Shown here: positions 19,338 through 41,030 of the stretch, in pieces
Position numbering within the stretch: the first letter of the stretch is position 1
Layout of the letters: every line of letters begins with the position of its first letter
Virus record (IMG/VR): IMGVR_UViG_3300026488_000026
Coordinates: 1 to 64,000 of that record
Origin: a virus
Length of the DNA stretch: 64,000 nucleotides
Reading direction: 5' to 3' (one strand)
Notes under the pieces: model-generated
The model's input: only the letters and a program-made list of their open reading frames with translations
What the model was told of the DNA's origin: nothing
Database searches by the model: none
Translations under genes and position numbers: made by a program

Positions 19338-19495
19338 TAAAAAATAAAGGAGAGAAAAATGAAACCTAATTTTAAGGGGAGGACATTCAATTGAGCTTTA
19401 TTTAAAAATAAAGCTCAATTGAACACCCACATCAGGTGTTCTAAATTTAACACCCACTTCAGGTGTTATAAATTGAACACCCACATCAGGTGTTC
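19338..19495 (-). ncRNA. candidate late small RNA: three 27-nt hairpin repeats, an 18-bp hairpin and an anti-RBS tail
   Basis: Orphan late promoter at 19502-19509; hairpins with compensatory closing pair; 19338-19364 complementary to RBS/ATG regions of replication-arm genes. Confidence 0.55.
19421..19495. repeat. three tandem 27-bp palindromic units
   Basis: Units start at 19421, 19448 and 19475: (G/T)AACACC-CAC(A/T)TCA-GGTGTT(C/A). Confidence 0.95.
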
Positions 19496-19501
19496 TACTA
19501 T

Positions 19502-19509
19502 TATATCGG
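19502..19509 (-). promoter_or_regulatory. orphan late promoter box CCGATATA
   Basis: No ORF follows; 7 nt upstream of the hairpin array. Confidence 0.7.
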
Positions 19510-19512
19510 AAA

Positions 19513-20562
19513 TTATACAACCCGTGTTGAAATGTAAATTCCTTTATAAGTTTTTTTACTCAAAGTTGGGTCGGTAGTAAACAAAGGAAAATGTCTAATG
19601 CTTACTGTTTCTTTAAAAAACTCACTAAAATAAACTTTACCATCAGAAGTTTCTTGTCTAAATCTAAATTTTAATTGATTTACTCTCCCCCATTGTGGGT
19701 TAGAGCCAGAAAAGTCAAGAGTTATTTTATTGTTAGTAAATTTATTTAATGGATAATAAGTGCTTCTTCTTGATCTTGACATATTTCCTGTGTTACCACT
19801 ATTGTTAAAATTAGTAACTTTATCATAACCCCACATTTCAAGAATTAAGTTTTCAGGAAAAGTTTGATTAAAGACAAAACCACCAATTGAAATGGTATTG
19901 AAAAATTTTTTATTTAATTGCATTGTTTCATTTCCATCAAATTGTTTATAAGTTACAGTCCAATCAGTAGGGTCGTCATTATTCATAACAGCATCTTCTA
20001 AATACATATATTGTTTTGTATTATCCCACATAGTAATCGGTATCATTGCATTTCTTGCTTTTACTCTTGTAGTACCCTCATACCTATCCAATCTTATATT
20101 ATACATTCCTCCAAATTTAATTGGCTCTTTATAAACAATTTTAATTGTTCCAGCTGGATTACCATTAGGAAAACTTAAATGTTGTGTATAACCAGCTGGA
20201 TTTATATATTGTTTTCCAAATTCCCAATCATCAAACAAAGTATCATTAATATATACTTTTACTAAATTTTTATTTGGAAAAATTAATTGTCTTAACCACA
20301 ATAGTTTTTGAGGCGAAATGTTATCCGTATGAGAATACATAATTATTTGATTTTCTCTAACATTACTACCTCCAAAAGGAACTAAATAGCCTTTTGAAAT
20401 TGCATCATCTACATTGCTTGTAGCTACCGAATTATTTGCTACAACATAATAATCGTAACTACCAGAATCTACAATAACCAATTGATTTAATTCATAATTC
20501 TGTAATATAATCACATCTGTTGGCTTTAATACAGGTATTTTATAATGAGTATAAACTTGCAT
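19513..20562 (-). CDS. putative virion accessory protein, paralogous to the C-terminal half of 20573..22441
   Basis: Shared blocks 'NKNLxKVxxN....DWxFG.Q' and 'VS.R.FP.FT.D'. Confidence 0.55.
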   Translation of the reverse strand: MQVYTHYKIPVLKPTDVIILQNYELNQLVIVDSGSYDYYVVANNSVATSNVDDAISKGYLVPFGGSNVRENQIIMYSHTDNISPQKLLWLRQLIFPNKNLVKVYINDTLFDDWEFGKQYINPAGYTQHLSFPNGNPAGTIKIVYKEPIKFGGMYNIRLDRYEGTTRVKARNAMIPITMWDNTKQYMYLEDAVMNNDDPTDWTVTYKQFDGNETMQLNKKFFNTISIGGFVFNQTFPENLILEMWGYDKVTNFNNSGNTGNMSRSRRSTYYPLNKFTNNKITLDFSGSNPQWGRVNQLKFRFRQETSDGKVYFSEFFKETVSIRHFPLFTTDPTLSKKTYKGIYISTRVV

Positions 20563-20572
20563 TTTTCCTCCT

Positions 20573-22441
20573 TTAAATAATTTTCATAAGTTTGTAATCA
20601 CCTACAAACTTATTTTCACTATCAGATGCATCTATTGTAAATACAGGAAAAGTCCTGACACTAACTACACTTGAAAGCCAACGACTAAACAAAACATTAC
20701 CACTTTCATCTGTTTTACCTAATCTAAAATGATAAATACCATTTTTATCAAGATTAGAAATTTTATTAATAGTAAATTTACCAATAGGTATTAATCTTCC
20801 TTGTGCCTCCATGTTATTTGGGATATGTTTTGTATTTGGGGATTTACTATCGCTTTTCCATACTTCTATCCAAAAACCATCTGGTAATGTTTCTTCTTTC
20901 GGAAATTCTGCTATATAAGCAAAATTAGGACTTGCTTTTTCTACTATAATTTTAATATCTGGGTTATCAATTCTAATATATTTACAAGAATAGCGTTTAT
21001 AACCTAATTCTTCCCCAAGTATGCTTACTTCTTTTAAATAAAATTTATTACCATGGCTATCTGTAATAAATTTAGTTATCATTTTTGGTCTTGAAGTTAT
21101 TTGTAAAGAGCCTTCTTTTCTATATAATACAAGTTTATAATCGCCCAAATTTATAGGCTCTAAATATTCAATTTTAATTTCATCATCGCTATTTAATGTA
21201 GTGTTGAATTTTAAATGAGTTGTATAATCAGGATTTAAACTTTGGACTTGATTGCCAAAATCCCAATCTTCATATTCTACTCCATTAACCCAAACTTTAA
21301 ATAAATTTTTGTTTTTAAAAACATAGCGTTTTAAAAACAACAAGTTTTTACCAGAAATATCTTTTCCTTTTCTATAAATAAAAACACGATTAGTTGTATC
21401 ACTACTATCGTTAAAGCTAAACAATTCTCCCGTGTTAATATCAATACCTATTACATAAGCATTTTCTGGTTTTGGTTTTGGGGTCTTTGCATAAGAATAA
21501 AAAATAGGATTTTTCATTTTAAAATCAAAAGCATCTTTTGTTACTGAGAAATAAGGTTTAATTGATGCAAAATCATTTCCTAAAGCAATATCATATTGTG
21601 CTTGGTCTCCATAAGCTCCAACTACTAATTGCTTATCACTAAGATTACCTCCTTTACCAGCCAAATAAGCTTGATAAAAACTTGTTGGATACATTGTTAA
21701 AAAAACTTGGTCTTTATAAGGGTCAGCAGAGGTAGAAGCCGTAAATCCAGCCCCAGCATAATTATCAGAATTATTTTCATTTGTTACATTTATTTCAACA
21801 ATACCATAAACATTTCTTTTTATAGCAATGCGTTGGACATCATCCGCCGTTTGATTGTTAGGTTGTAATTGTTTTCCAATTCCTGTATCTGATTCAGTTT
21901 TTTCCCAATAAGTTTTTTTATCAATAATATCACAGATATCTTTTGGCGTGTATCTTCTAACTTCATCAACAGCACAAGGATTTTGTTTTTCAACTTCAGT
22001 TATTTTATGAATTTGAACGCCAAGATAAAACCATTTTGGATTACCATCCTCGTCTTTCCTTGCTTCATACAAACCAGCTTTCTTTCTATTAAATAAAGTC
22101 CAAGTTCCTGTTGCTTTTTGAACTAACCATTGCTCCCCTAAATGGTCGGCTGGGTCAGGTAAATCAGCAAAAGTTTCAACTTCGCCTTCCCAACCATCAA
22201 AACTTGAACTACCTCCTCCTAAACTAACTTCAACCCAACTTATCAAATCATCTTGTAATTGCCAAAATTTTCCATCTTCTTGACAATAAACTACCATTCC
22301 TGATTTTCTTCTTAAATCAGGAATGTTATCTCTCTCTTCAATAGTAGCTACAACACGAAAACCACCTTCTAAATGAGTATCTTCAACTAAAGGATATTCT
22401 CCTCCACCTGTATCAAATTTTCCTGTTATTTTAATCCCCAT
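20573..22441 (-). CDS. putative virion fibre/decoration protein
   Basis: N-terminal 'GGFRVVATIEERDNIP..RRKSGMVVY' and 'VETFADLP' modules typical of phage fibre proteins. Confidence 0.55.
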   Translation of the reverse strand: MGIKITGKFDTGGGEYPLVEDTHLEGGFRVVATIEERDNIPDLRRKSGMVVYCQEDGKFWQLQDDLISWVEVSLGGGSSSFDGWEGEVETFADLPDPADHLGEQWLVQKATGTWTLFNRKKAGLYEARKDEDGNPKWFYLGVQIHKITEVEKQNPCAVDEVRRYTPKDICDIIDKKTYWEKTESDTGIGKQLQPNNQTADDVQRIAIKRNVYGIVEINVTNENNSDNYAGAGFTASTSADPYKDQVFLTMYPTSFYQAYLAGKGGNLSDKQLVVGAYGDQAQYDIALGNDFASIKPYFSVTKDAFDFKMKNPIFYSYAKTPKPKPENAYVIGIDINTGELFSFNDSSDTTNRVFIYRKGKDISGKNLLFLKRYVFKNKNLFKVWVNGVEYEDWDFGNQVQSLNPDYTTHLKFNTTLNSDDEIKIEYLEPINLGDYKLVLYRKEGSLQITSRPKMITKFITDSHGNKFYLKEVSILGEELGYKRYSCKYIRIDNPDIKIIVEKASPNFAYIAEFPKEETLPDGFWIEVWKSDSKSPNTKHIPNNMEAQGRLIPIGKFTINKISNLDKNGIYHFRLGKTDESGNVLFSRWLSSVVSVRTFPVFTIDASDSENKFVGDYKLMKII

Positions 22442-22452
22442 TTAAAAACTCC

Positions 22453-23268
22453 TTAACTGATAGTGCTATCTAACGGACTACCTTGTTGATAAGTAGTTCG
22501 TAATGCTTTATATTCAATTGTAACACCATAATCATTTGTTATATTTATATTATCTAAATAAGTAAAATCCACGGCAAAACCCGATTCATTGTCACGCCAA
22601 TCATTAATATTTCCCCATTCAGCTGGATAAAAAACAAAATAATATCTCAATTCACCATGATTATCAAAATTATATTTTCCTGAATACCCACTTTTTAAAG
22701 CACTATTCTCAAGTGCTTTAATTTCTTCCGCAGTTAAAGTTTCTTTTACCGAAGTTCCCCAATAAACTCTTGCTCTCCAATAAACACGAAAATCTCTACT
22801 AAATGTTTGTTCTTTTGTATTAACACCACTAATTCTCCAAGTATAATAACTATTAATTTCGCTTGAAGTTTTATCCTCCCCTATATCTAAATTTTCCTGA
22901 CCATCATTTGCTAAATTACTACCTAAAATTGTATTAGCGTTTATATCTTTAATGCTAATAGAGTTTTCTTTTATATTTTCTGAATGACTTGTACTCCATT
23001 TAAAAGTTCTAATCCCACCGCTTATTGCTTGTCCTACTTCTAATTGCGTTGATTGTCCTTCAATATAAAAACTTGTAAAAGAAGGATATTGATAAGGAAA
23101 CAAAATCATTTTTAAAACTTCACAAGGTTGCATTCCATTAATATCTGTACCAGCTTCTAATCCACCATGTTTTTCTGGTACAACTTCTTCAGTTTGCATA
23201 ACACAACCACCAGACCCTCCACCAACTCCTATATCAGGGTAAATCACAGAAAATTTATTATTTGGCAT
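22453..23268 (-). CDS. putative virion protein
   Basis: 'GGLEAGT...LFPYQYPSF' motif seen in structural proteins; late promoter upstream. Confidence 0.5.
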   Translation of the reverse strand: MPNNKFSVIYPDIGVGGGSGGCVMQTEEVVPEKHGGLEAGTDINGMQPCEVLKMILFPYQYPSFTSFYIEGQSTQLEVGQAISGGIRTFKWSTSHSENIKENSISIKDINANTILGSNLANDGQENLDIGEDKTSSEINSYYTWRISGVNTKEQTFSRDFRVYWRARVYWGTSVKETLTAEEIKALENSALKSGYSGKYNFDNHGELRYYFVFYPAEWGNINDWRDNESGFAVDFTYLDNINITNDYGVTIEYKALRTTYQQGSPLDSTIS

Positions 23269-23297
23269 TTTCTTCCTTTATAGTTAGCATTTATACA

Positions 23298-23305
23298 TAT
23301 ATCAG
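23298..23305 (-). promoter_or_regulatory. late promoter box CTGATATA
   Basis: 30 nt upstream of ATG 23268. Confidence 0.75.
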
Positions 23306-23333
23306 TTATATTACTTTTAAAAACTAAAAAACC

Positions 23334-24692
23334 TTATACAACTTGAATTTGTAAATTTTGTAATTTCCACCAACCACTTGTTAAATAACGCAAAGCACCA
23401 ACAGCTAAGTCAAAATGCCCATCTTTGTTTCTTTCTATTGTTTTTCCATTTGAATTTTCTTTCCAATGAGCCAACTTTAATTCTTCTATTAATTGCATAC
23501 AATTTTCAGATATAAATAATTTTCCTTTTTGAAATGCTGTGTTAATGTCCCTAATGCTTTCTACTAATTGAATTGGTGCGGGTTGTGTATAGTAGTTATA
23601 GCTATATGCCATATCAGCCATTGTCAAACTTGCACTTGGGTCACAAAACCTTACAACTTGCATATCAGGATTTTCCGCATATCTTTGTTCTATTTCTCTG
23701 AATTGTTTAACATGCCATTCAATAGGCATTTGCCCAGCTTTATATTCGTCCAAAACATAAATATTGCCCGTCATAGGCTCTACCCAAGCTATAACAAAAC
23801 TTGTATTATCTCTATAACCTATATCAATTCCTACTACAAATGTATCTTTTGTTGTCATTTTGTTTTTCAAATCATTAATTCTAAATACATTTTTTTCTAA
23901 ATCAAAAGCATAAAATACTTGTAAATCCTCGCTAAACCCACTTTGAAACTCACATAAATATTCTTGTTCAAAACTTCTTTTATCAAGTTTAGCTTTAATT
24001 GCCTCAATCATTTCTCTTGTTATCATAGGATTATCATAAATAGTTACCTTTTTACAAAAATAATCATCGCGTTCAGCACATCTTTTCCATAATTTATAAA
24101 AATCATTATCAAAAGTTCTTGGCGTTCCTATAAAAAAAGTTTTAGAATACATAAAACCATTTTCATCAGTTCCATAATCATTTTGTGCTGGAGAAATATA
24201 AGTTTCCCAAATTTCAAGAACATTATTAATACTCGCGGTTTCATCAAAAATAACCAAACTAAATTTATCTCCAAGTGCATTTTCATAATTTTTTTCAGTA
24301 ACGACACGAAACTTTGCACCATTTTCTAATGTAAATGTTAAACCTTTCATATCTTTTGATTTAAAAGGCAATTGTAATTTGTTTACATCTTTTTCAACAT
24401 TACTAAAAATAGCTTGTGCATTTGCAAAAGTAGGCGTTACTAATAATATACTTGAATTTGGAACTAAAAGTTCAGCGGAGGCAATTTTTGACATAACTGT
24501 TGATTTACCAGCTCTTCTTGACATTAAAAAAACACCAACATTAAAATCCCCTTTTTGTATTCTATCAATTATTTCTTGTTGATATTTTGTAGGAGTAAAT
24601 TCAAAAAGTTTCATTACCTTATTATAATCTATCTTCTTTTTAACTTTTTTATAAAGCTCTATTTCTTGATTTATAGGTTTAAATTCAGACAT
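23334..24692 (-). CDS. terL: terminase large subunit
   Basis: Q motif (YQQ), Walker A 'SRRAGKS', Walker B 'VIFDE', 'GTP' coupling motif, RNase H-like 'GIDIG' and 'HFD'. Confidence 0.96.
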   Translation of the reverse strand: MSEFKPINQEIELYKKVKKKIDYNKVMKLFEFTPTKYQQEIIDRIQKGDFNVGVFLMSRRAGKSTVMSKIASAELLVPNSSILLVTPTFANAQAIFSNVEKDVNKLQLPFKSKDMKGLTFTLENGAKFRVVTEKNYENALGDKFSLVIFDETASINNVLEIWETYISPAQNDYGTDENGFMYSKTFFIGTPRTFDNDFYKLWKRCAERDDYFCKKVTIYDNPMITREMIEAIKAKLDKRSFEQEYLCEFQSGFSEDLQVFYAFDLEKNVFRINDLKNKMTTKDTFVVGIDIGYRDNTSFVIAWVEPMTGNIYVLDEYKAGQMPIEWHVKQFREIEQRYAENPDMQVVRFCDPSASLTMADMAYSYNYYTQPAPIQLVESIRDINTAFQKGKLFISENCMQLIEELKLAHWKENSNGKTIERNKDGHFDLAVGALRYLTSGWWKLQNLQIQVV

Positions 24693-24726
24693 TAAACAAT
24701 CCTTTTAATAAATTGTAATTTTAAGT

Positions 24727-24734
24727 TATATCAG
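24727..24734 (-). promoter_or_regulatory. late promoter box CTGATATA
   Basis: 35 nt upstream of terL ATG. Confidence 0.75.
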
Positions 24735-24799
24735 ATTAAATTTAAGTATAAAAAGAATTGTAAGAAATTTGTTATGAGAGTTTAATGAGTTTTTTCAGA

Positions 24800-24926
24800 T
24801 AGGATATAAAAAAAATTCTTTAAGGCTTCGGACAGTTTTAAAATTCCCTAAAATTCGACATTTTAAACTTTTTTTATAAAAAATACTTTATAAAAATCGT
24901 CAAAACTCTTGTATAAAATTTTTTAC
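24800..24926 (+). repeat. 126-bp dispersed intergenic repeat, copy 2
   Basis: Near-identical to 9158-9283. Confidence 0.95.
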
Positions 24927-24930
24927 GCTA

Positions 24931-24959
24931 TTGACAAAATGTAAAAATTTTTTTATAAT
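24931..24959 (+). promoter_or_regulatory. sigma70-type promoter of plus-strand island
   Basis: TTGACA-N17-TATAAT. Confidence 0.85.
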
Positions 24960-25000
24960 TTAAAAAAATTTAAGAACTTATCATAAAAATTAAGGAGGAA

Positions 25001-25249
25001 ATGATGACTGAATTAAGATATATTTGTGATGGATATGATTGTTGGCAAACAGGTGATTTAGATGAAATTTGGGAAATAGATAAAGAGGTTGCTGAAAAAG
25101 TAATTGAACTTGGTTTTTGCAACGAAAGTGCTAACGCAAAAGATTTACATTTATGTAAAGAATGTATTAATGAACTTTTAAAAGAATATCCTGATATTTT
25201 TGAAGTAGAAGATGAAATGCTATGTTTTAAGGAGGCAAAAAATGACTAA
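25001..25249 (+). CDS. small acidic Cys-rich hypothetical protein
   Basis: AAGGAGG RBS, consensus promoter upstream. Confidence 0.7.
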   Translation: MMTELRYICDGYDCWQTGDLDEIWEIDKEVAEKVIELGFCNESANAKDLHLCKECINELLKEYPDIFEVEDEMLCFKEAKND

Positions 25250-25445
25250 AAAATTTTTAGTTGATTTGATTGTTGTTGGATTAGCACTCATATTTTATGC
25301 ACTTTTTATTTTAGGGCTAAGTCAAAAGGTTTATAACGAGGTTTTTATTAAATATTTTAGCCCTATTATTATCTTTTTAGGTTTTTTGCAGTTAAGTGAA
25401 TTTTTAGTAAGCATAATTAAATTAATTATAAGAATTTTAAAATAA
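25242..25445 (+). CDS. small 2-TM membrane protein
   Basis: Start moved to 25242 (AAGGAGG RBS); two hydrophobic segments. Confidence 0.65.
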   Translation: MTKKFLVDLIVVGLALIFYALFILGLSQKVYNEVFIKYFSPIIIFLGFLQLSEFLVSIIKLIIRILK

Positions 25446-25462
25446 AAACAAAAAGAGATAAA

Positions 25463-26697: not shown

Positions 26698-26732
26698 TTT
26701 ATTATAACAAATTTAATCAATTTAGTAAATTT

Positions 26733-27047: not shown

Positions 27048-27074
27048 TTTTTACCTTTTATATAATATTACTTA

Positions 27075-27082
27075 TATATCGA
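27075..27082 (-). promoter_or_regulatory. late promoter box variant TCGATATA
   Basis: 28 nt upstream of ATG 27047. Confidence 0.6.
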
Positions 27083-27155
27083 AATGTTAAGGTTTATAAA
27101 TTATTATTTACTTATTTATTTGTTATAATATTAAATAAAATTTTAAAGGTAAAAA

Positions 27156-31632: not shown

Positions 31633-33492
31633 ATGAATAGATTGATTGAAATTATCGAAAAAGAAAAAAAAGAAAGAAGAAAAATTAAAAAAATTTTGAT
31701 AAAAAGAAAAGATAAAAAAGTAGCAATTAAACCAAATTCATTTGATAAATTTGGTCAATTGCTTAAAAATTATACAATAATTTTATACCAAATGTCAAGA
31801 GTTTTATCAAATTTTTCTAATAAAAATAAAGCAATTTTGAATAATTTGTTATTTTTATTAGAAAAATTTGATAATTCATCAAGTTTTTATAGAAACTACA
31901 AATATTTTATAATGGGAATTATAGAAGGACAAATAAATCCTCAAGTTGTCGCTCAAAATTTTACTCAATTTTATATTACTCTTACTTCTACGCATTTTGA
32001 AACTAAAGGTTTAAGTTTTGTTGCAAATCCTTATCAAGCTACTCAACAAGATAAAGCAAGACCTAATTTAAGACATGGTAAGTTTGGTTATATAAGAAAA
32101 TATGGATACGAACAAAATTTAGGTTTGGTATTTGATGACGAAAGTTATGATGTTGTTGAATATTTTAAAATGATAACAAACGATAAATGTGCTTTTTATA
32201 CGCCAAATAATAAATATTCTAAAAATTCATTAAGATTTGATATTGATGATAAAACTTTGAATATGAATGAAATGGAAATTTTAATTAGAACTACAATGAA
32301 TAAATTGAATATAAATGGTGAAGTTGAAATTATCGAAACAACAAAAGGTTGGCAATTTGCAATTTATGTGCCATTGTTTTTTATTAAAACTTTTTATGAT
32401 AAAAGCGATTATGTTGTAGAACAAATTTTTATTAGTGATAGAAAAACAACGAAAGCATTTGATGCCTATCAAAAGTTTAATAGAAAGTTTATTAAAGTTT
32501 TAGAAAATTTAGCTAAAGAGCTTTTTAATGTTAAATTAGAAGTTGATAAATTTGCTTTAGAACAAGAAAAAGTTAGAATATGGCGAAATGCAAAAGCTCA
32601 TAATCATTGTTATTTTTCTGTTATTGATAATGAAAAAACAACAATTTTAGAAATGATTGATTTACCTGAAGAAGATGAAAAAGAAAATTTTATAAATTAT
32701 TTTGAAACTAAAAAAGCAAATGAAATTGAATTACGAAATAAAATGCCAAATGTTTATAAATTTTTTAAAAAATATAATTTTTCAATGCCTAAAATAAATT
32801 GCTCTTTAATCGGTAAAATGAGTGAAAATACCGAAAGTTTTTATTTAACAAAAGCAATCGTTCATAAATTTGTAATTGATTATAATCATTTAGAAAATTT
32901 TGATATTTTGTTGGCTGAATTAAGCGAGGCAATTGAGCTTGATTTTAGAAATATTTATCAAGAGGAAAAATCAATTGAAAATATAAATATTGTAATTGAT
33001 TATTATTTAGAAAATTTCGATATTTATCTAACCGCCCAAAAAACGGCAAGAAGTCGCATGTTTGCTAAAAGTTTAAAAGCTTTTGAAAATATAAGAAAAA
33101 ATAGAAATAATTTAGGCGAAATAAAGCAAAAAATTGAAAAAAATAAAAATGAACTTGAAAAAATTAAAAATAATGATGAAAATAAATTGTCAGTTAGAAA
33201 AATGGCTAAAGAATTAGAAAAAATTGCTTTTGAATTGCCTAAATCTACGCTATATGATTATATTAGAAAAGGGAATGTTGATATTTTAATTGAAATGATT
33301 GAAATGTTATATGAATATGTTATAATTTTAATGAATGGTAATGAAAAAGAGCAACAAAAAGCAATTCAATTGTTTGAAATAATCGAACAATTAAAAGGTG
33401 CTGTTAGATATGTTGTAACTATGATGAAATTTGGTTTGGTTAGAAATGAAAAATTGCGAAAGTTTTTTTATGTAGAAAAACGAAAGGAATGA
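31633..33492 (+). CDS. putative Rep protein: AEP/primase-like domain plus C-terminal HTH
   Basis: 'YTPN..LRFDIDD' and 'ETTKGWQF' motifs; HTH 'LSVRKMAKEL..LPKSTLYDYI'. Confidence 0.55.
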   Translation: MNRLIEIIEKEKKERRKIKKILIKRKDKKVAIKPNSFDKFGQLLKNYTIILYQMSRVLSNFSNKNKAILNNLLFLLEKFDNSSSFYRNYKYFIMGIIEGQINPQVVAQNFTQFYITLTSTHFETKGLSFVANPYQATQQDKARPNLRHGKFGYIRKYGYEQNLGLVFDDESYDVVEYFKMITNDKCAFYTPNNKYSKNSLRFDIDDKTLNMNEMEILIRTTMNKLNINGEVEIIETTKGWQFAIYVPLFFIKTFYDKSDYVVEQIFISDRKTTKAFDAYQKFNRKFIKVLENLAKELFNVKLEVDKFALEQEKVRIWRNAKAHNHCYFSVIDNEKTTILEMIDLPEEDEKENFINYFETKKANEIELRNKMPNVYKFFKKYNFSMPKINCSLIGKMSENTESFYLTKAIVHKFVIDYNHLENFDILLAELSEAIELDFRNIYQEEKSIENINIVIDYYLENFDIYLTAQKTARSRMFAKSLKAFENIRKNRNNLGEIKQKIEKNKNELEKIKNNDENKLSVRKMAKELEKIAFELPKSTLYDYIRKGNVDILIEMIEMLYEYVIILMNGNEKEQQKAIQLFEIIEQLKGAVRYVVTMMKFGLVRNEKLRKFFYVEKRKE

Positions 33493-33740: not shown

Positions 33741-33750
33741 AGGAATAAGA

Positions 33751-35304: not shown

Positions 35305-35305
35305 C

Positions 35306-35335
35306 TTGACATATGCAATAATAAAATGCTATAAT
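35306..35335 (+). promoter_or_regulatory. sigma70-type promoter
   Basis: TTGACA-N18-TATAAT with TGn extension. Confidence 0.8.
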
Positions 35336-35367
35336 TTTTTTGAAGTAAATTTAAAAAGGAGAATCAA

Positions 35368-35817
35368 ATGAATGAAATTAATTTGTCAGCTTATTTAAAA
35401 CAAATGCTTGAGCCACAAGTTGTAATTGAAATTTGTAATTATGAATTTGGCAAAGATTTTAAAGAAAAATTTGAAAAAGAAGAGCTTTTAAGTTATCTTA
35501 TTAATAGGTTATTAAAAAATAATGATTTGGCATCAAATATGTATGATTTTGTTGAAGTTGTTGGTTTTATCGTCCAACAAGAATTTAAGAATTATGGGCG
35601 AGTTTATATAGATGTTGATGAACTTGATAATGTTTTTTATGTTTTAGTTGGTAGAATGTTAGAAAATGGTATTCCTAAAAACTTAATTAAACAATTTTTA
35701 GTTGATTGTTTTAAATCATTTTATGGTTTGCTTGATAAAAAAATTTCTGATTTAATTTGGGAATATCAAAATAAAAAAGAAAAATTACCAAATCAGCTTT
35801 CAGGATTTGACAAATGA
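35368..35817 (+). CDS. hypothetical protein
   Basis: AAGGAG RBS, promoter upstream. Confidence 0.65.
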   Translation: MNEINLSAYLKQMLEPQVVIEICNYEFGKDFKEKFEKEELLSYLINRLLKNNDLASNMYDFVEVVGFIVQQEFKNYGRVYIDVDELDNVFYVLVGRMLENGIPKNLIKQFLVDCFKSFYGLLDKKISDLIWEYQNKKEKLPNQLSGFDK

Positions 35818-36119
35818 TTGAACGCAAATTAAGTTGTTATCAGGTCCAAAAGGTTATGGACCTTTTTTATTTAAAAAAAGCAACTATTTCAAAAATAGCC
35901 CAATATTTTAAAGTTGGTTATAAGACAATTCAATATATAGTCCAAGGCAAAACTTATCGTGATTGTTGGCGTTATGATAGATATGGTTGGGAAAATGAAA
36001 ATGATTTCAAACTTGCTTATGAACATAGGAAAAGAGAGAACATTAAAAATTATGGAAATGGTAGAAAATCTCCAAAAATAGAATTCCTATTAGAACAAAT
36101 AAAAAAAGGAAAAGTTTGA
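35814..36119 (+). CDS. HTH DNA-binding protein
   Basis: 'TISKIAQYFKVGYKTIQYIVQGKTY'. Confidence 0.6.
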   Translation: MIERKLSCYQVQKVMDLFYLKKATISKIAQYFKVGYKTIQYIVQGKTYRDCWRYDRYGWENENDFKLAYEHRKRENIKNYGNGRKSPKIEFLLEQIKKGKV

Positions 36120-36355
36120 AAACAATTTGGCTTGTTAAATGCCTAAAATGTAATGATGAAGTTGAAAATGGAAAGTGCAAATGTGGAAATGTTGGCGTTA
36201 GAAAAAAAGGAAAACAAATTTTAGTTTTATTTTGTGACGATTTAAAAACTTGCAACTTAAAAAAAGTTGTAAGATACAAAAACTTAATAATAAAAGAAAA
36301 AAGTTGGTTTCCTTTTAGTTTTGCTAAAATTGAAAAAGTTGAGATGGAGGTATAA
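36116..36355 (+). CDS. Zn-ribbon hypothetical protein
   Basis: CLKC...CKCG motif, TTG start with AAGGA RBS. Confidence 0.55.
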   Translation: MKTIWLVKCLKCNDEVENGKCKCGNVGVRKKGKQILVLFCDDLKTCNLKKVVRYKNLIIKEKSWFPFSFAKIEKVEMEV

Positions 36356-36430
36356 ATGGGTTTTTATTTTAGTTTTATTTTGGTTGGTGTTGTTTGTTTG
36401 CTTTTATTTTCAATTATAAAAGGACTTTAA
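36356..36430 (+). CDS. 24-aa membrane peptide
   Basis: GGAGG RBS; MGFYFSFILVGVVCLLLFSIIKGL; TAA-ATG coupling on both sides. Confidence 0.55.
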   Translation: MGFYFSFILVGVVCLLLFSIIKGL

Positions 36431-36517
36431 ATGTTTGAAGAGATAATTTTTTTAGTTAGTTATTTTGTGTTTTTGATTATTGTAACGATTGAACTTTTAA
36501 GTAAGAAAGGAGAATAA
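36431..36517 (+). CDS. 28-aa membrane peptide
   Basis: AAGGA RBS; MFEEIIFLVSYFVFLIIVTIELLSKKGE; TAA-ATG coupling. Confidence 0.55.
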   Translation: MFEEIIFLVSYFVFLIIVTIELLSKKGE

Positions 36518-36778
36518 ATGAAAATAACAATACAAAGTTTTTTTGGTGCGGTAGCTTTTATTAGTTTTGTAATTGCAAGTTTTTATTTTAGTGCAATTTT
36601 AGGTTTTATTACATTTCTTTTTGGAGGATTTTTTATAAATGGAATGGAAGTTTTTATGAAAGCAAATTGGGAATTGTTTAGTAATGAACTTGTTTTAGCA
36701 ATTTCTTCATTAATTGTTGGTATAATTTCATTTCTTTTTGCTGTTTGGTTGGATAGTTTAGATAAAGATAAATTTTAA
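36518..36778 (+). CDS. membrane protein
   Basis: AAGGAG RBS; hydrophobic segments. Confidence 0.65.
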   Translation: MKITIQSFFGAVAFISFVIASFYFSAILGFITFLFGGFFINGMEVFMKANWELFSNELVLAISSLIVGIISFLFAVWLDSLDKDKF

Positions 36779-36790
36779 AGGAGAATTAAA

Positions 36791-37033
36791 ATGCTTTGGC
36801 TCAAAATTAAAAATGTTGGTTATTTAAAAGTTAAGGATATTAGCTATGTAGGCGAAGTTAGTTTGATTGATTTTGATGAATATACAAATAAAAATTTATA
36901 TGGATTTGAAATTGTAATTGGAGGAGAACTTTTACCTTTAGTTTATGATAGTAAAGAAAAAGCAATTAAGGTTAATGAGGAAATTAAAAAACAACTTTTG
37001 ATGAGTGCAAAAATTATAAAATTAGAAATTTAG
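36791..37033 (+). CDS. hypothetical protein
   Basis: AAGGAG RBS. Confidence 0.65.
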   Translation: MLWLKIKNVGYLKVKDISYVGEVSLIDFDEYTNKNLYGFEIVIGGELLPLVYDSKEKAIKVNEEIKKQLLMSAKIIKLEI

Positions 37034-37062
37034 TTTTCAATAGAAAATAAAAGGAGTATAAA

Positions 37063-37359
37063 ATGATGGTTGTAACAAGCTTAAATTTTTTTGAAAATTT
37101 AAAAAGCACTGAAATAAGCGAAGAGCAAGAAGAGCAACTTATAAAATTTTATGAATTGTTGATTGATTATAAAAATGTAATAGATGAAGCAAGAGAAGAT
37201 AAAAATATTTTGCTAATTCAAATAGAAAACAACAAAGAATTGTTAGTATATTACTATGGGCTTTATTTTTTATATTTGAATGAAGAAAAAATTTTTAGTT
37301 TTAATTCAAAAGATTTGACTATAATTGGAGATTTTTTAAAGGAGGCGTTAGATGATTAA
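37063..37359 (+). CDS. hypothetical protein
   Basis: AAGGAG RBS. Confidence 0.65.
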   Translation: MMVVTSLNFFENLKSTEISEEQEEQLIKFYELLIDYKNVIDEAREDKNILLIQIENNKELLVYYYGLYFLYLNEEKIFSFNSKDLTIIGDFLKEALDD

Positions 37360-37711
37360 GTTTATTAAACGCTATGTGTGCCAAGGTAAAGTTCAAAATG
37401 ATTATGAAAACAAAGTTGATTTTTTTCAAGTGATTGTTGAAAAAGAAGATGGAAGTCTTGAATGGAATGATGTTGTTGTTAAAGGTTTTTTGGTTTATTT
37501 AAAAGGCGGAAATTATGATAGATTTATCCGAGGTATGTATAAAATAAAAGAAGAAAAATGGAAAGAGCTTGAAAGCAAATTGTTTGATAAAGTTGAAGTT
37601 ATTGATTGTAATAAAGAAACTGAGCTTGAAGTTTTTGAGCTTGCATTATCAGGCGTTAGTTTGCCTGAAATTCAAAAATTTTTAGAAGAAAATGCGGAGA
37701 AAGTTAAATGA
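37352..37711 (+). CDS. hypothetical protein
   Basis: AAGGAGG RBS. Confidence 0.65.
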   Translation: MIKFIKRYVCQGKVQNDYENKVDFFQVIVEKEDGSLEWNDVVVKGFLVYLKGGNYDRFIRGMYKIKEEKWKELESKLFDKVEVIDCNKETELEVFELALSGVSLPEIQKFLEENAEKVK

Positions 37712-38013
37712 GAATTTTTCTCCTTTTATTGATAATTTCAAGTTTGTTTGGCTATGATTTGTTGTGTTTAGTAGGTAAGAACGGCGATAAATGGTTGGAA
37801 GTTGAAAAACAATTAAGTTTGCATTGTGATAGCGAAAAATTAAAAATAAATGCGGTTAGATTTAGGCAAATTAGCGATTTGTTTGTTTATGAAATGCCAA
37901 ATAAAGCGGTGTTGTTTTGCGAGAAAGATTGGGTGTGGAGCTTTAGAAAGCTGATTATAATCGGCAAAGAAAATTTTAAAAGCGGTGATTGCAAAAGTTT
38001 TTATAAAAAATAA
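37708..38013 (+). CDS. putative exported protein
   Basis: Signal-peptide-like MRIFLLLLIISSLFG. Confidence 0.55.
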   Translation: MRIFLLLLIISSLFGYDLLCLVGKNGDKWLEVEKQLSLHCDSEKLKINAVRFRQISDLFVYEMPNKAVLFCEKDWVWSFRKLIIIGKENFKSGDCKSFYKK

Positions 38014-38476
38014 AGTTTGTAAAGGTTTTGGTAGAGGATTTGCTGTGGTTTTGGCGTGGATTTGTTAGTTATATGCCAAGCTATTTGTGAGTAATTGGTA
38101 GGTAAAAGAAAGTCCGCGGATTTTTTAGCGTTTTGCACTCAAATAACCTCCCCCGTTTAATTCACAAGCCACATGTGAATATCTGCTTTTAGTGTCAAAC
38201 GCTTTTTGTTTACTTAACATAATGCATATTCTCAGGACATTTTAAAGCTAAAAAGTGTGAATAACTCAACGAATGGCAATTCAATTTTAAGTGAATGTTA
38301 AGGATTTTTTATAAAATAGTAAAATTATAGTGTCTGACACTATAAAAAATTTTTAACATAAGGTAGTTTATAGAATAAGCATCGGTCGGCGTGGTTGCGG
38401 TCCTTTGCGGTCCTCTTTTATCGCCCTACAAGGAAAGGTCAAAAAATGCCGCGTTTTGTGGGTCACATTGTAGATT

Positions 38477-38825
38477 AAAATTTTTTCTTTTAAATCTAAA
38501 ACAAATTAACTAAAATTTTTTCTTTTAAATCTAAAACAAATTAACTAAAATTTTTCTTTTAAATCTAAAGCAAATTAACTAAAAATTACCTTGCAAAATT
38601 AAAATTTTTTCTTTTAAATCTAAAACAAATTAACTAATAAACTAAAAACAAACAAATTAATAAACAAATTAATTAACTAACAAACTACCTTGCAAGATTA
38701 AAATTTTTTCTTTTAAATCTAAAACAAATTAATAAACAAATTAATTAACTAACAAACTACTTTGCAAGATTAAAAAATTTTCTTTTAAAATTAAAAGCTA
38801 ACAAACTAAAACTATCTTGCAATTT
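38477..38825. repeat. AT-rich tandem/mosaic repeat array (about six copies of a ~35-bp unit)
   Basis: Unit AAAATTTTTTCTTTTAAATCTAAAACAAATTAACT, later copies interleaved with ACTA(C/T)(C/T)TTGCAA blocks. Confidence 0.9.
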
Positions 38826-38864
38826 TTTAAATTATCAAAAGTCTTTGACACTTTTTATTAAAAT

Positions 38865-38897
38865 AACGCCAAGGGGACTAATTTTCCCTTTGGCGTT
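38865..38897 (-). terminator. hairpin terminator of the early cluster
   Basis: AACGCCAAGGGG...CCCTTTGGCGTT, 12-bp stem with one non-canonical pair. Confidence 0.7.
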
Positions 38898-39220
38898 TGA
38901 AAATCTTATTCCATAGTTTTTCTTCTGTCTTAACCACTTCTATATTTCCTGCTTTTATTTCTTGCTCTATTGCTTGTTTGTTTCCATCTTTGAAAAAGCA
39001 AAAATCTTCCAAAAAAAATTTTTAAATATTTTGAAGTTGTAACCGAAAAATTATAAGCATTTTTCAAGAGATAGATTTTTCTTTCTTTTATAATTACTCC
39101 GTCTTTTTCTTTTTTAATATATGTTTTTCCTGCAATAAGAGTATTATAACTTTGAAAAATAACTCCTGATTCATTTCCTATTAAAAACTGATTTTTTTGT
39201 ATTTGTTTTACTTTTAGCAT
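38878..39220 (-). CDS. early hypothetical protein, apparently frameshifted at a T8 tract (reads 38930..39220 as given)
   Basis: 'FQSYNTLIA..SVTTSKY' motif; removing one T at 39011-39018 gives ..FLEDFC..AIEQEIKAGNI.. ending at 38878. Confidence 0.55.
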
Positions 39221-39233
39221 TGTGTGTCTCCTT

Positions 39234-39650
39234 TTAGTTTACTCTATAAATATAATAAGTTTTACCATTTATAGTAATTTCTCTTTCGTCTCCATCATAA
39301 CTCGCAATTACACTTCCTGCACCATCATATTTTAATACATCTTCAACCCAAGCATCAACATCCACATAATATCGCAAATTTTCTGGTATATCTGATTCAT
39401 AGCATTCTTCATAAATAGTATATAATTCATTTTTTGCATACTCTTCTACATCATCATAATCATTAAAAACTAAAAATTCACAGCATCCACAATCTACAAA
39501 TAAATAGTTGTTCTCTTTTCTGAATTCACAATCTTTCAAATCTTTTGGAAGCACTTGAAGTGCTTCCGCCAAAATTTTCAAATCATACTTATCTTGAATA
39601 TTAAAATATTCTAACACTTCTTTAAAAGTTAATTCATTATCATATAACAT
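39234..39650 (-). CDS. acidic early hypothetical protein (ArdA-like C-terminus)
   Basis: 'IPENLRYYVDVDAW..D..DG.G..ASYDG.E' motif, highly acidic; AAGGAGG RBS. Confidence 0.55.
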   Translation of the reverse strand: MLYDNELTFKEVLEYFNIQDKYDLKILAEALQVLPKDLKDCEFRKENNYLFVDCGCCEFLVFNDYDDVEEYAKNELYTIYEECYESDIPENLRYYVDVDAWVEDVLKYDGAGSVIASYDGDEREITINGKTYYIYRVN

Positions 39651-39662
39651 TTTACACCTCCT

Positions 39663-40568
39663 TTAATTTTCTAAATCTTCAATTATATAATCTAAAAAAG
39701 TATCTTCATCAAAATCTAATAAAATTTCGATAAAATCATTAAGTTTATCATAATCTACTATTAAATGATAAATAAATTCGTCTTTCGCCCATTCATATAA
39801 ATTTTTAAATAATTCTTTTTTGTTTTGTTTTTTATTGCAATCTTCACAATCTTTATAATAATTTTCATAAATTTCAATTAATTCTTCTTTTTTAATTTTT
39901 TTAAGAAGTTTATCAATTAATTCATCTTCGCTATAATCAATTAAACTTGAAATAATCCAACTTAAAGTTTTATAATCTAAATTATTATAATATTTAACAT
40001 CTTTTAAATACTCTTTTATGTCATCTACTAATACATAATAATTTGTGCCATCATGATGCCTGATTATCACTTCAATTTTTTTGTATTTTTTGCAATCAAA
40101 AACTTCCACTTCAATATCACCATCCGTTGCTTTATTTAGGAAATTTTCAAAAGTGCCTATATATTGTATTTCATAATCAAAATTGCCTCGCCATGTCCCT
40201 ACGCTTTCATCTACCAACCATAGGTTGCCATTATCAATTTTTTCATTTAATTCATCTATAAAAAATTTCCAATCTTCTCTCGTCAAATCTCCTGCTTTTC
40301 TCCAATCCCAATATTCATAATCTTCTATAATTTCATTTTTTTGTTTTTTTAAATTTTTTATTTCTTCTTTAAAATCTTTTATTGTTCTTTTAATTTTATT
40401 ATATGTTACACTTCCTGTTATAACATCTTTTAACATCTCTTCATTTTCTTTTATTTCATATTCAAGTGCTTCAATTCTTTCATTAAGTTCTTGCTCAACC
40501 AAATATTTAGCATTTTCTTCTACTACTATATCCCAATTAAATTCCATTATTTTTCTACATTCTTTCAT
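39663..40568 (-). CDS. acidic early hypothetical protein
   Basis: 'GTWRG...HHDGTNYY' motif; AAGGAGG RBS; consensus promoter upstream. Confidence 0.7.
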   Translation of the reverse strand: MKECRKIMEFNWDIVVEENAKYLVEQELNERIEALEYEIKENEEMLKDVITGSVTYNKIKRTIKDFKEEIKNLKKQKNEIIEDYEYWDWRKAGDLTREDWKFFIDELNEKIDNGNLWLVDESVGTWRGNFDYEIQYIGTFENFLNKATDGDIEVEVFDCKKYKKIEVIIRHHDGTNYYVLVDDIKEYLKDVKYYNNLDYKTLSWIISSLIDYSEDELIDKLLKKIKKEELIEIYENYYKDCEDCNKKQNKKELFKNLYEWAKDEFIYHLIVDYDKLNDFIEILLDFDEDTFLDYIIEDLEN

Positions 40569-40597
40569 TTGTGCCTCCTTTTATTTTTGTTAATGAC

Positions 40598-40626
40598 ATT
40601 ATAAAAAATTTTTTATAAAATGTCAA
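40598..40626 (-). promoter_or_regulatory. sigma70-type promoter with palindromic spacer
   Basis: TTGACA-N17-TATAAT overlapping TTATAAAAAATTTTTTATAA. Confidence 0.88.
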
Positions 40627-40816
40627 GAATTTTTTATAAAAAATATAAAAAATTTTTTATATTTTTATTTTTGTATATACATTAATATATAAGAAAAATT
40701 TTTCCGCTCTTTCATTTTTTAGTTTTTTATTTATAAAAAATAAATGCCAAACACCAAATTTTTCATTCGTTTTACTTTATAAAAAATTTGAAAATTTTTC
40801 AAAATTTTTGTATATT

Positions 40817-40900
40817 TTACTATTACCGCTTTTTTAATAAATTTTGAAAATTTAATTTTATTACTATTACCGATTTTTTAGTAGATTTTAAAAGTTTTAA
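40817..40900. repeat. two imperfect 44-bp direct repeats
   Basis: TTACTATTACCG(C/A)TTTTTTA at 40817 and 40861. Confidence 0.75.
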
Positions 40901-40995
40901 ATAGGAGGCACAAAAGGCAAAAAGCTCGAAATTTCGGAGGCACAAATGAAATGCTATAAATAAGGAGACACAATTTCTTTTTTGGCTTTTTGCCT
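40900..40995 (-). ncRNA. candidate anti-RBS small RNA
   Basis: Orphan promoter at 41001-41030; 14-bp inverted repeat 40912-40925/40985-40998; three segments complementary to RBS regions at 40563-40579 and 39223-39233. Confidence 0.6.
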
Positions 40996-41000
40996 TTTAA

Positions 41001-41030
41001 ATTATAAAAAATTTTATAATTACTTGTCAA
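41001..41030 (-). promoter_or_regulatory. orphan sigma70-type promoter
   Basis: TTGACA-N18-TATAAT; no ORF for 430 nt downstream. Confidence 0.8.

Follow-up and report, generated by a model that had tools for sequence, protein, structure and literature searches.

Two promoter classes and their promoters without a gene

The window analysed here is a stretch of 64,000 nt, part of the 78.8-kb genome (25% GC) of an uncultured phage; a DNA metagenome from a hydrothermal vent is the one sequencing run that contains it. It was compared with two relatives, giving a set of three genomes (G0 for the window phage, plus G1 and G2) in which the portal is 88-92% identical. A more distant relative, L171, was also examined at the site upstream of the portal gene.

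Late genes of this phage are marked by a box, YGATATAW, found in 11 intergenic copies on the minus strand, ten of which sit 34-42 nt 5' of an ATG (those of TerL, portal, protease/capsid and others). We take this box to resemble the -10 element of sigma28. A CGATA-type -10 at a fixed distance from late starts, together with a gene for a FliA-like sigma factor at 62523-63125 (minus strand), points to late promoters of the sigma28 (FliA) type. The product of that gene matches PF04542 (Sigma70_r2) at 1e-7, and its best NCBIfam matches, FliA (7e-13) and FliA/WhiG (9e-12), both fall under the curated cut-offs; presumably, it is this factor that reads the late boxes. The remaining copy of the box, at 19508 (19509-19501, minus strand), is the only one of the 11 lacking an ATG 34-42 nt downstream, the next ATG being 225 nt away. 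It lies directly after the stop codon of the gene at 19513-20562, is a full match to the CCGATATAA subtype, and the block TTTCCGATATAA at this position is identical in both relatives.

The other class is of the sigma70 type, and its members have a Shine-Dalgarno (SD) sequence and an ATG within about 25-75 nt, except for an antisense promoter at 31798 and for the one at 41030-41001 on the minus strand. The latter, TTGACA-18-TATAAT, matches the consensus at 12 of 12 positions and is kept in G1 at 65583; no conserved ORF was found between it and the next promoter, at 40626-40598. The first-pass annotation had stated that each class owns one promoter with no ORF behind it, which proved correct. 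Each of the two loci would therefore have, as a free-standing small RNA gene does, a promoter of its own, predicted in both cases from the sequence.

A predicted structured late-sense unit with an inverted copy of early leaders

In the late sense, the first locus opens with the ORF-less late box at 19509-19501; next come three hairpins that covary among the genomes, then a longer one, and after it 27 nt, predicted to be unpaired, that exactly complement early gene starts. All these parts lie on the minus strand. The three tandem hairpins (19421-19495) share a 7-bp stem, GAACACC/GGTGTTC, a UGNNNUG loop and a 27-nt period; the motif has three matches there against 0.18 expected, and every cell is paired in the three genomes, with compensatory A-U/G-C and G-C/U-A/A-U changes. 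The long hairpin (19386-19423) is a perfect helix of 16-18 bp in which three pairs have changed on both sides and two G-U pairs are possible in the late-sense strand only. Across the three genomes the hairpins of this locus show six compensatory pairs. The long hairpin is followed by the anti-leader (19337-19364), whose late-sense RNA, UUUCAUUUUUCUCUCCUUUAUUUUUUA, is complementary to an early leader with its SD and AUG. In the predicted folds of all three phages the anti-leader is unpaired and the 5' domain strongly structured (z about -5). Further downstream lies a second late box, CTGATATAT (19314-19323, minus strand), 39 nt 5' of the portal ATG and thus the portal gene's own promoter, of which a 13-14-nt block also precedes the genes that start at 14132 and 23268. 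The portal gene itself occupies 17928-19283 on the minus strand (PF04860 at 7e-39; phrog_12).

The segment at 19337-19364 is an exact inverted copy of gene starts at 49086 (27 nt), 44700 (26 nt), 49354 (25 nt), 72205 (24 nt) and 55351 (18 nt), and 150 shuffles gave no exact complement longer than 15 nt. By duplex energy, the start region of an 88-aa gene (49081-49107) ranks first of 99, followed by the early promoter-leader cassette at 44697-44760, where TTGACT-17-TATAAT precedes ..GCAATAAAAAATAAAGGAGAGAAAAATG and the predicted target start of an 82-aa gene. The cassette and predicted target start of a 92-aa gene at 49349-49413 rank third, and the start region of another 92-aa gene at 55346-55363 ranks fifth, all of them on the minus strand. 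The five best duplexes have energies between -35.5 and -26.6 kcal/mol, the best of shuffled sequences reaching -22.1 +/- 2.0; the comparison with shuffled controls, proposed in the first-pass annotation, thus places this locus far outside chance. The best predicted partners of the element are, in each of the three genomes, genes that come first after a sigma70-type promoter (Mann-Whitney p = 4e-4, 1.6e-4 and 8e-5). Late genes, on the other hand, rank 30th or lower of 99 in G0 and 26th or lower across the three genomes, in agreement with the earlier remark that no structural-gene starts had been noticed to match beyond the core SD. Moreover, the anti-leader is the longest non-trivial copy of an anti-start region in each of the three genomes, where one outlier of 22-23 nt per genome stands out upstream of the portal gene. 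The early leader itself belongs to a promoter-leader cassette of about 70 nt repeated at at least four sites, and the start tag AAAGGAGAGAAAAATG is carried by 4-5 early genes in G0 and G1.

G1 and G2 retain the element at the equivalent position even though the flanks have diverged beyond alignment, and the SD complement, the CAT and their spacing are preserved in the three phages. Its sequence follows the leaders of each phage, from AAATAAAGGAGAGAAAAATG (G0) to AAACAAAGGAGAGAAAAATG (G1) and ACAAAAGGAGAAAAAATG (G2), the G0/G1-type motif being wholly absent from G2. Co-variation of element and targets among relatives, anticipated in the first-pass annotation, is hence observed at this locus, and at 40.9 kb it takes the form of a module and a tag that are present or absent together (see below).

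Such co-variation could also be the trace of an evolutionary relic, in which inverted start-region copies would be scars of rearrangements or of lost divergent genes, kept alike by ancestry and gene conversion, and would have no function as RNA. Membership of a repeated cassette makes the leader prone to homogenisation, and the matching changes in element and leaders could stem from gene conversion among the cassette copies and not from selection for pairing. In L171 the equivalent place, 5' of the portal gene, is taken by a genuine divergent gene that starts ATGAAACCC; the G0 element (ATGAAACCT...) could therefore be what is left of such a start. In addition, G2 has plus-strand promoter-leader cassettes within the late region, and the three genomes compared are closely related. 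Against a relic stand the retention of SD complement, CAT and spacing between diverged flanks, the lack of conservation of the short plus-strand ORFs behind the element (MKPNFKGRTFN, MNRLIEL and MKKKKERKLN), its position in a late-sense unit that is structured, covaries and follows a late box of its own, and the match in G1 between the triple site at 40.9 kb and a tag on six unrelated genes. We regard a relic as unlikely.

A function of the opposite strand, where the SD and ATG copies would start tiny ORFs on antisense transcripts (11 aa at 19359, and MKCYK at 40946), appears highly improbable. Both loci do read on the plus strand as a good SD followed by ATG, and the 5-codon ORF at 40.9 kb has a similar counterpart in G1 (MKFYK). 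However, no consensus promoter was found upstream at either locus on that strand (only 9-10 of 12 matches, which is the chance rate), the 19.3-kb peptides vary among the phages, and it is in the other direction that the strong promoters and the late box face.

An operon and the repeated anti-SD sites upstream of it

At 40.9 kb, fold and motif outline a candidate RNA of about 90 nt (40904-40998, minus strand) with three UUGUG(C/U)CUCC sites. Two unpaired anti-SD sites (40964-40973 and 40936-40951) lie inside a predicted closing stem of 12-14 bp (40985-40998 with 40912-40925), and a third (40904-40913) comes just after it; G1 preserves this stem by losing one matched base from each arm. TTGTGYCTCC occurs five times against 0.08 expected, three of the five at 40904-40973. 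Over 16 nt the segment is exactly complementary to the SD and AUG of the gene at 40568, where shuffles reached at most 15. As the first-pass annotation had indicated, both hairpin-containing segments are real and their complements to SD/ATG regions, of 27 and 16 nt, are non-random. Judged by duplex energy alone, the 40.9-kb locus of G0 is not above shuffles (best -30.1 against -24.9 +/- 2.4); nor is the fold of the RNA unusually stable (z = -1.7 and -0.9).

The operon immediately downstream (38930-40582, minus strand) encodes proteins of 301, 138 and 96 aa, the second of them weakly ArdA-like, with the start regions GGAGGCACAAATG, GGAGGTGTAAAATG and GGAGACACACAATG. Its own promoter (40598-40626, minus strand) is a 12/12 match of the same sigma70 class as the one at 41030. 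By duplex energy the three genes rank 1, 13 and 16 of 99 in G0 (p = 0.007), which bears out the reported match between this segment and the start tags of the adjoining operon. In G1 the pattern is sharper: the tag GGAG[GA][CT]A[CT]A..ATG (GGAGGYACA-type) is found downstream of the RNA at the starts of six genes in a row, most of them unrelated, and at no gene start elsewhere, and these six rank 1-5 and 11 of 111 (p = 2.6e-5). Each C-to-U difference in the G1 targets sits opposite a G in the RNA, so that a G-U pair forms. G2 lacks both the RNA module and the tag while retaining the neighbouring sequence. Since G0 and G1 are about 90% identical over the entire 560-nt spacer, conservation there says little on its specific parts.

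The discrete small RNAs proposed at first remain candidates, for neither segment is followed by a convincing terminator. A terminator scan found none at 40.9 kb, where the closing stem is followed only by UUUU (G0) or UUU (G1), and none at 19.3 kb, where the long hairpin has no U-tract. At 19.3 kb, moreover, element and portal gene are separated by the late promoter of the latter, and the complement may be no more than part of a long leader of the portal mRNA. These features invite a purely cis-acting reading, in which the operon would acquire, by read-through from 41030, a leader of 460 nt with anti-SD sites that fold onto the first start. The unit at 19.3 kb would then set the stability and translation of the portal mRNA as a long structured leader or as a processing site, leaving early mRNAs unaffected. 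In favour of this reading, each segment shares its strand with the gene that directly follows, with no terminator found in between, and tandem promoters would yield isoforms with and without the leader. Nevertheless, the 19.3-kb tail matches early leaders over 27 nt and the portal start is not among its better partners, and a single fold-back fails to explain sites that match all six G1 cistrons. We consider action in cis alone very unlikely.

The 40.9-kb spacer is also repeat-rich, with CGGTAATAGTAA present twice and several AT palindromes, and it adjoins the ligase gene among replication genes. Within its 560 bp, AT-rich and ORF-less, the three 10-bp repeats that hold the anti-SD sites are spaced 28 and 32 bp apart. 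Such a highly conserved arrangement could suit iterons or operators of a transcription-activated origin, as part of a reading at the DNA level in which a phage protein would block early transcription at the leaders and stimulate the portal late promoter. The distance from the element to the portal late box, 14 nt in G0 and G1 and 2 nt in G2, differs by about one helical turn, and a precedent exists in p4 of phi29, one protein that reportedly represses early and activates late promoters (PMC3100819). Sites for a protein, however, give no reason for the exact coincidence with SD, spacer and ATG, nor for keeping the CAT. The other ten late promoters all lack the element, the tagging of each cistron start in an operon is a pattern that belongs to the RNA level, and the G-U pairs of the long hairpin are possible in the late sense only. 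Furthermore, the six operon tags of G1, none identical to the repeats, are all G-U compatible with the repeat complement, so RNA pairing fits better than a single protein reading both. Altogether, DNA-level sites seem distinctly unlikely.

Proposed pairing and its relation to known systems

The reading that we prefer, to which we give slightly less than an even chance, is that the mirror copies of the ribosome-binding leaders of two gene sets, which follow the two promoters without an ORF, act as antisense RNAs that pair over SD and AUG and turn down the translation of these genes. Sequences, statistics, structural covariation, conservation and class-specific complementarity were all observed in three genomes; from them we infer transcription of these strands, RNA ends, pairing and repression. 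On three genomes the case is a well-founded hypothesis, not a result. Two non-structural gene sets would thus be labelled by stereotyped translation-initiation regions, with one transcribed mirror copy per label. At the first locus, a structured RNA with an unpaired 27-nt tail would come either from late transcription driven by the box (19509-19501) or from transcripts that run on past the terminase operon, and this tail would pair with the leader common to the first genes of several sigma70-driven early operons and block ribosome loading, the long duplex probably inviting cleavage as well. In this way the FliA-like sigma factor and the late box would give rise to an RNA whose sequence complements the leaders that sigma70-type promoters produce, and late transcription would also turn off early translation. 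The same duplex could equally work in the other direction and damp the late RNA while early leaders are abundant.

At the second locus, the strong promoter at 41030 would yield the RNA of about 90 nt, whose large loop may expose two, perhaps three, UUGUG(C/U)CUCC sites for pairing with the GGAGGYACA-type starts of the operon just downstream, the weakly ArdA-like gene included. The first-pass annotation had joined both loci in a cascade that silences earlier gene classes. Of this proposal, the half that stands in its temporal sense is the late RNA against sigma70-made early leaders. No feature sets the targets at 40.9 kb apart as an earlier class; RNA and operon both carry a consensus sigma70-type promoter, and the cascade is only half supported because locus and targets share one promoter class. 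Being co-expressed with its targets, the 40.9-kb RNA would limit or delay their translation and not switch a stage; it looks like a c4-like brake on one operon.

Accounts of the timing of phage genes usually invoke promoters, sigma factors and a few proteins, such as RegB and RegA of T4. Possible, if rather doubtful, is a wider proposal in which the late sigma28-like programme would make an anti-leader RNA that jointly silences the sigma70-driven early operons by perfect 20-27-nt pairing, as an RNA counterpart of T4 RegB/RegA. The combination of a tag and its transcribed mirror copy would then be a widespread, unrecognised temporal layer, with a second, operon-private tag/anti-tag pair in the same genome. 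If true, early-gene shut-off could be read directly from the sequence of uncultured phages, and unexplained stereotyped start tags, such as the SAS of mycobacteriophages, would gain a concrete partner. The tag/anti-tag pairs, short and easy to transplant, could also find use as orthogonal translational switches.

Among published systems, the nearest parallel is precisely the SAS of Cluster K mycobacteriophages, which combines tags with one inverted copy. SAS/ESAS (Pope et al. 2011, PMC3203893) is a tag that contains the SD; it precedes by a few bases the ATG in many non-structural genes of unrelated families, and structural genes lack it. One copy lies on the complementary strand, and the authors leave open whether RNA or protein is the reader. 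Likewise, the phages studied here carry SD-containing tags on unrelated non-structural genes, AAAGGAGAGAAAAATG on 4-5 (G0, G1) and GGAGGYACA on all six of one G1 operon, with late genes ranking low and a single inverted copy away from a gene start, upstream of the portal gene. On the other hand, these tags do not conform to the SAS consensus GGGATAGGAGCCC, host phylum and phage group differ, and the inverted SAS copy, for which no promoter, RNA structure or antisense role has been proposed, contrasts with the late box and covarying RNA structure found here.

For the 40.9-kb RNA the comparison is with the c4 antisense RNA, and P4 CI RNA and P22 sar RNA are of the same general kind. The c4 RNA of P1/P7 (Rfam RF01695; Citron and Schuster 1990 via PMC2864571) shares a strand with its target, is encoded shortly before it and has complementarity to the downstream ribosome-binding site; c4 is freed by processing of the operon transcript and represses in trans. 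The 40.9-kb RNA has a similar place, about 330-430 nt ahead of the gene at 40568, shares its strand and carries the 16-nt SD/AUG complement. It differs in having three repeated anti-SD sites aimed at every cistron of the operon and in that a context of lysogeny immunity is not evident. The c4 covariance model gave no match at E<=5 in 40560-41140 or 19270-19530, and no Rfam family matched in the window at its gathering score.

RsaE/RoxS of Firmicutes are C-rich small RNAs that pair with SD sequences of many mRNAs, and the 40.9-kb candidate resembles them in setting several unpaired C-rich motifs of one RNA against G-rich ribosome-binding sites. The early shut-off logic of the 19.3-kb tier is, in turn, shared with RegB/RegA of T4, which silence early mRNAs post-transcriptionally through an extended SD context (RegB: GG*AGRAYARAA) that middle and late mRNAs escape (review PMC3014915); T4 employs a protein reader, and here the candidate reader is an RNA complement from a late promoter. 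In the flagellar hierarchy of Campylobacter jejuni, class-specific small RNAs tied to one sigma-factor class are reported to modulate another (PMC11187230). The Rfam families of RsaE/RoxS have no match at these loci, and, unlike these RNAs and those of C. jejuni, which are host-encoded and unrelated in sequence, the candidates described here would act on the phage's own, privately tagged genes.

Genome, relatives and promoter classes

The 64 kb analysed here open a single contig of 78.9 kb whose ends overlap by 127 bp, which indicates a circularly assembled phage genome (G0) of ~78.8 kb and 25% GC, with nearly all genes on the minus strand. The sole sequencing run containing it is a DNA run from a hydrothermal-vent metagenome, which may be the source sample. 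The portal gene (17928-19283, minus strand), with a protease/capsid gene next to it leftward, is separated from its upstream gene by a 229-nt spacer (19284-19512) that holds the first locus, at 19.3 kb; to the right of this locus lie three genes of unknown function and then the large terminase (23334-24692). The right arm, from about 39 to 78 kb, carries replication and early-type genes, including a DNA ligase (41362-42714) and a phage sigma factor (62523-63125). Relatives were sought with the portal protein and a portal profile in viral, metagenome and genome contig collections, which yielded two close genomes, G1 (83.9 kb, portal 92% identical) and G2 (80.6 kb, 88%), two short distant contigs with portal proteins 63-65% identical, and no prophage relatives. 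Neither locus had a megablast match among 50,697 phage records. No tRNA, tmRNA or Rfam family was matched in the window at gathering score, and at E<=5 the two loci returned chance fragments of miRNA, snoRNA and tmRNA only; pattern scans using TGGGYGTTCAATTGA and TTTCATTTGTGCCTCCGA also gave chance matches only, and many of these were simply gene starts of the opposite strand.

A near-consensus sigma70-type promoter family, cTTGACa-17/18-TATAAT, recurs across the non-structural arms, and several of its copies are followed by the same leader (..GCAATAAAAAATAAAGGAGAGAAAAATG). A late box, YGATATAW (CTGATATAT or CCGATATAA), has 11 intergenic copies on the minus strand, 10 of them 34-42 nt upstream of the ATG of the terminase, portal, protease/capsid and other late genes. 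We take this box to resemble the sigma28 -10 element. The best family matches of the sigma factor are FliA and FliA/WhiG, both under curated cut-offs, and a FliA-like factor together with YGATATAW ahead of ten late-gene ATGs makes the late programme appear sigma28-like. On these grounds, the two promoter classes described in the first-pass annotation are real.

Two further promoters were noted. At 31700-31798, a minus-strand sigma70-type promoter (TTGACA-18-TATAAT) sits within the 5' part of a plus-strand gene (31633-33492) and reads antisense into the first 165 nt of this 619-aa gene; a long hairpin and then a U-rich run follow, the arrangement is kept in G1 at 54513, and the unit is a candidate cis-antisense small RNA. 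Beyond the window, at genome 66925-67001 (L172:2925-3001), a consensus promoter opens onto the leader of the gene at 66897. This leader, 75 nt in length, contains an imperfect palindrome, GACTATTGGTTAGAACATTGGTTTAACCATTAGTC, is kept in G1 (7518) and G2 (3117), and is possibly structured.

An inverted early leader upstream of the portal gene

The eleventh late box (CCGATATAA, 19509-19501, minus strand) lies directly after the stop codon of the upstream gene, and the next ATG is 225 nt away. In late sense it is followed by three tandem hairpins (GAACACC-UGNNNUG-GGUGUUC), for which a lambda boxB-like reading (CCU-GAAGU-GGG) is conceivable, then by a perfectly paired hairpin of 16-18 bp, a brief variable segment and a tail, UUUCAUUUUUCUCUCCUUUAUUUUUUA, beyond which come the portal gene's own late box (19323-19314, minus strand) and the portal start. 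This tail, the element at 19337-19364, reproduces, exactly and in inverted orientation, the leader, Shine-Dalgarno sequence (SD) and AUG at five gene starts, three of which belong to first genes behind sigma70-type promoters; the exact matches span 27 nt for the gene at 49086, 26 for 44700, 25 for 49354, 24 for 72205 and 18 for 55351. Among 150 dinucleotide shuffles, exact complements reached at most 15 nt, and the top five duplex energies (-35.5 to -26.6 kcal/mol) compare with -22.1 +/- 2.0 for the best of the shuffles. In the predicted fold, the RNA has strong structure (z = -5.4) and an unpaired tail. No terminator was found at this locus, and the element may belong to a portal mRNA isoform with a long leader or to a read-through RNA of the terminase operon. 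The portal start region was tried as its cis partner and rejected, being absent from the better duplexes, which fits poorly with purely cis-acting leaders, a quite improbable explanation.

The late box, hairpins and element occupy the same position in G1 and G2. Across the 34 hairpin pairs of the three genomes every cell is paired, with six pairs altered on both sides, and two G-U pairs are possible in the late-sense strand only, which suggests structure in the late-sense RNA. On either side of the element the sequences are unalignable among the three phages; the SD complement, CAT and spacing are retained. In G0, ..AAATAAAGGAGAGAAAAATG is found in the element and in all its leaders; in G1, ..AAACAAAGGAGAGAAAAATG is found in the element and in most leaders; in G2, the element reads ..ACAAAAGGAGAAAAAATG, the leaders are of the GGAGAA type, and the G0/G1 motif AAGGAGAGAAAAATG has zero occurrences. 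Judged by these three genomes, the element is tracking each phage's own leaders, with changes in the element matched by changes in the leaders, the co-variation for which the first-pass annotation proposed a check. Moreover, in each genome the genes predicted to pair best with it are those that come first after a sigma70-type promoter (Mann-Whitney p = 4e-4, 1.6e-4 and 8e-5), with late-box genes ranking 26th or lower in all three. When each genome was scanned for complements of start regions, excluding those that are mere backs of gene starts, a single outlier emerged in all three, the locus 1 element (22-23 nt, 6-7 targets); the background was 13-17 nt.

The two distant contigs have the late box but neither hairpins nor element. 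At about the element position, one (L171) carries a real divergent gene starting ATGAAACCC, so that a vestigial origin of the element is possible; the same gene favours the view that the element is a relic kept by gene conversion, which we consider unlikely. The hairpin unit's place ahead of the portal late box is taken by CCAGTGGACAAACCATCTAT(T/A)ATG, with three copies in L170 (400-660), the other distant contig, and one in L171 (640-660). In G2, an intergenic pyrimidine stretch at 2183-2211, UUUUCUCUCCUUUCCUCCUUUUGUUUUUUU in minus sense, bears two anti-SD-like motifs with 14-nt matches to G2 leaders; the homologous G0 spacer is pyrimidine-rich and without CUCC.

A candidate RNA ahead of a tagged operon

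The second locus, at 40.9 kb, begins with a sigma70-type promoter (41030-41001, minus strand, 12/12) followed by ~400 nt in which no conserved ORF occurs, as far as the next promoter (40626-40598, minus strand, 12/12), that of the genes at 40568, 39650 and 39220; none of the small minus-strand ORFs from 41000 to 40627 is conserved between G0 and G1. In the predicted fold of the first ~90 nt, a closing stem of 12-14 bp (40985-40998 with 40912-40925) bounds a large loop where UUGUGUCUCC and UUUCAUUUGUGCCUCC are unpaired, and a third site, UUGUGCCUCC, lies past the stem. Within G0, a 10-mer of this locus occurs five times against 0.08 expected, one copy being the back of the 40568 start region, and the complement that the locus has to this start region, at 16 nt, is barely longer than the 15 nt reached by shuffles. 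Neither the stability of the fold is unusual nor is the duplex energy better than that of shuffles, so that the duplex screen against shuffled controls advanced in the first-pass annotation turned out favourable at locus 1 and unfavourable here in G0. By duplex energy, the three genes of the operon rank 1, 13 and 16 of 99 (p = 0.007).

Comparison with relatives is stronger at this locus than within-genome statistics. G1 retains the promoter, all three sites and the stem, the latter preserved by the loss of one matching base from each arm. Its tag, GGAG[GA][CT]A[CT]A..ATG, marks six consecutive downstream genes, mostly unrelated, and no other gene start; in the duplex-energy ranking they take places 1-5 and 11 out of 111 (p = 2.6e-5). 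Every difference between the G1 tags GGAGGUACA and the RNA UGUGCCUCC is a G-U pair, a pattern that fits poorly with sites for a DNA-binding protein or origin iterons, as does the coincidence of the sites with SD, spacer and ATG; we regard such DNA sites as distinctly unlikely. In G2, the ligase, the homologue of the ArdA-like gene and the spacer's downstream, repeat-rich part are present, and the RNA module and the tag are both absent, so module and tag are kept together in G1 and gone together in G2. A weak match to ArdA antirestriction proteins (E = 3e-4, under cut-off) was obtained for the middle gene of the operon (39234-39650), which G1 and G2 conserve. The predicted target genes (82-148 aa) and the 301-aa and 349-aa neighbours gave no Pfam, PHROG or NCBIfam family. 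The remainder of the 560-nt spacer (40627-40895), beside the ligase gene, contains a direct repeat (CGGTAATAGTAA, twice), AT palindromes and a block, TATATTAATGTATATACAA; in part it persists even in G2, where the anti-SD module is absent, and it may act as an origin or as some other regulatory region.

Proposed pairing over start sites and known parallels

A private start-site tag with one mirror copy on a presumably transcribed strand would allow RNA-RNA pairing that occludes SD and AUG. This is the simplest reading of tag and mirror copy, and we hold it tentatively, at a little under even probability. At locus 1, late transcription would yield the complement of early leaders and thereby a temporal logic. 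The promoters without ORFs and the complementary segments noticed in the first-pass annotation are confirmed. The interpretation given there, a cascade of small RNAs each silencing an earlier gene class, is partly supported, as to class-specific complementarity, conservation and structure; the 'earlier class' is not supported at locus 2, where RNA and targets share one promoter class, and the full two-tier cascade is less likely than the pairing explanation. Altogether, the sequence case is coherent, backed in three genomes by conservation, structure and class specificity, and what it describes would be phage antisense control of translation combined with tags like the start-associated sequences of mycobacteriophages. 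That the mirror copies instead serve plus-strand tiny ORFs seems very improbable. After the mirror-copy starts such ORFs read MKPNFKGRTFN (G0), MNRLIEL (G1) and MKKKKERKLN (G2) at 19359-19394, and MKCYK (G0) and MKFYK (G1) at 40946-40963; no plus-strand promoter was found for them at either place.

Among phage antisense RNAs, P4 CI, P22 sar and lambda OOP belong to the same broad kind as the candidate RNAs here. So does c4 (PMC2864571). As far as sequence goes, the architecture of locus 2 resembles that of P1 c4, where the antisense RNA immediately precedes the operon that it targets; the c4 model has no match at locus 2. The closest published parallel is found in the start-associated sequences of Cluster K mycobacteriophages, stereotyped SD-containing tags on non-structural genes, of which several genomes hold a single copy in opposite orientation and whose reader may be an RNA or a protein (PMC3203893). 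In T4, proteins follow the same logic as that proposed here: RegB cleaves early mRNAs where GGAG stands in an extended context, and RegA acts as a repressor at the start regions of early genes (PMC3014915).

A plus-strand gene at 25242-25445 has a start region (25215-25245, ATGAAATGCTATGTTTTAAGGAGGCAAAAAATG) that shares a 12-nt block, ATGAAATGCTAT, with the plus strand of the 40.9-kb module. This start region forms the best duplex with the 40.9-kb RNA in 42-nt windows (-30.1 kcal/mol) and the third in 32-nt windows, and could be either a chance match or an extra target.
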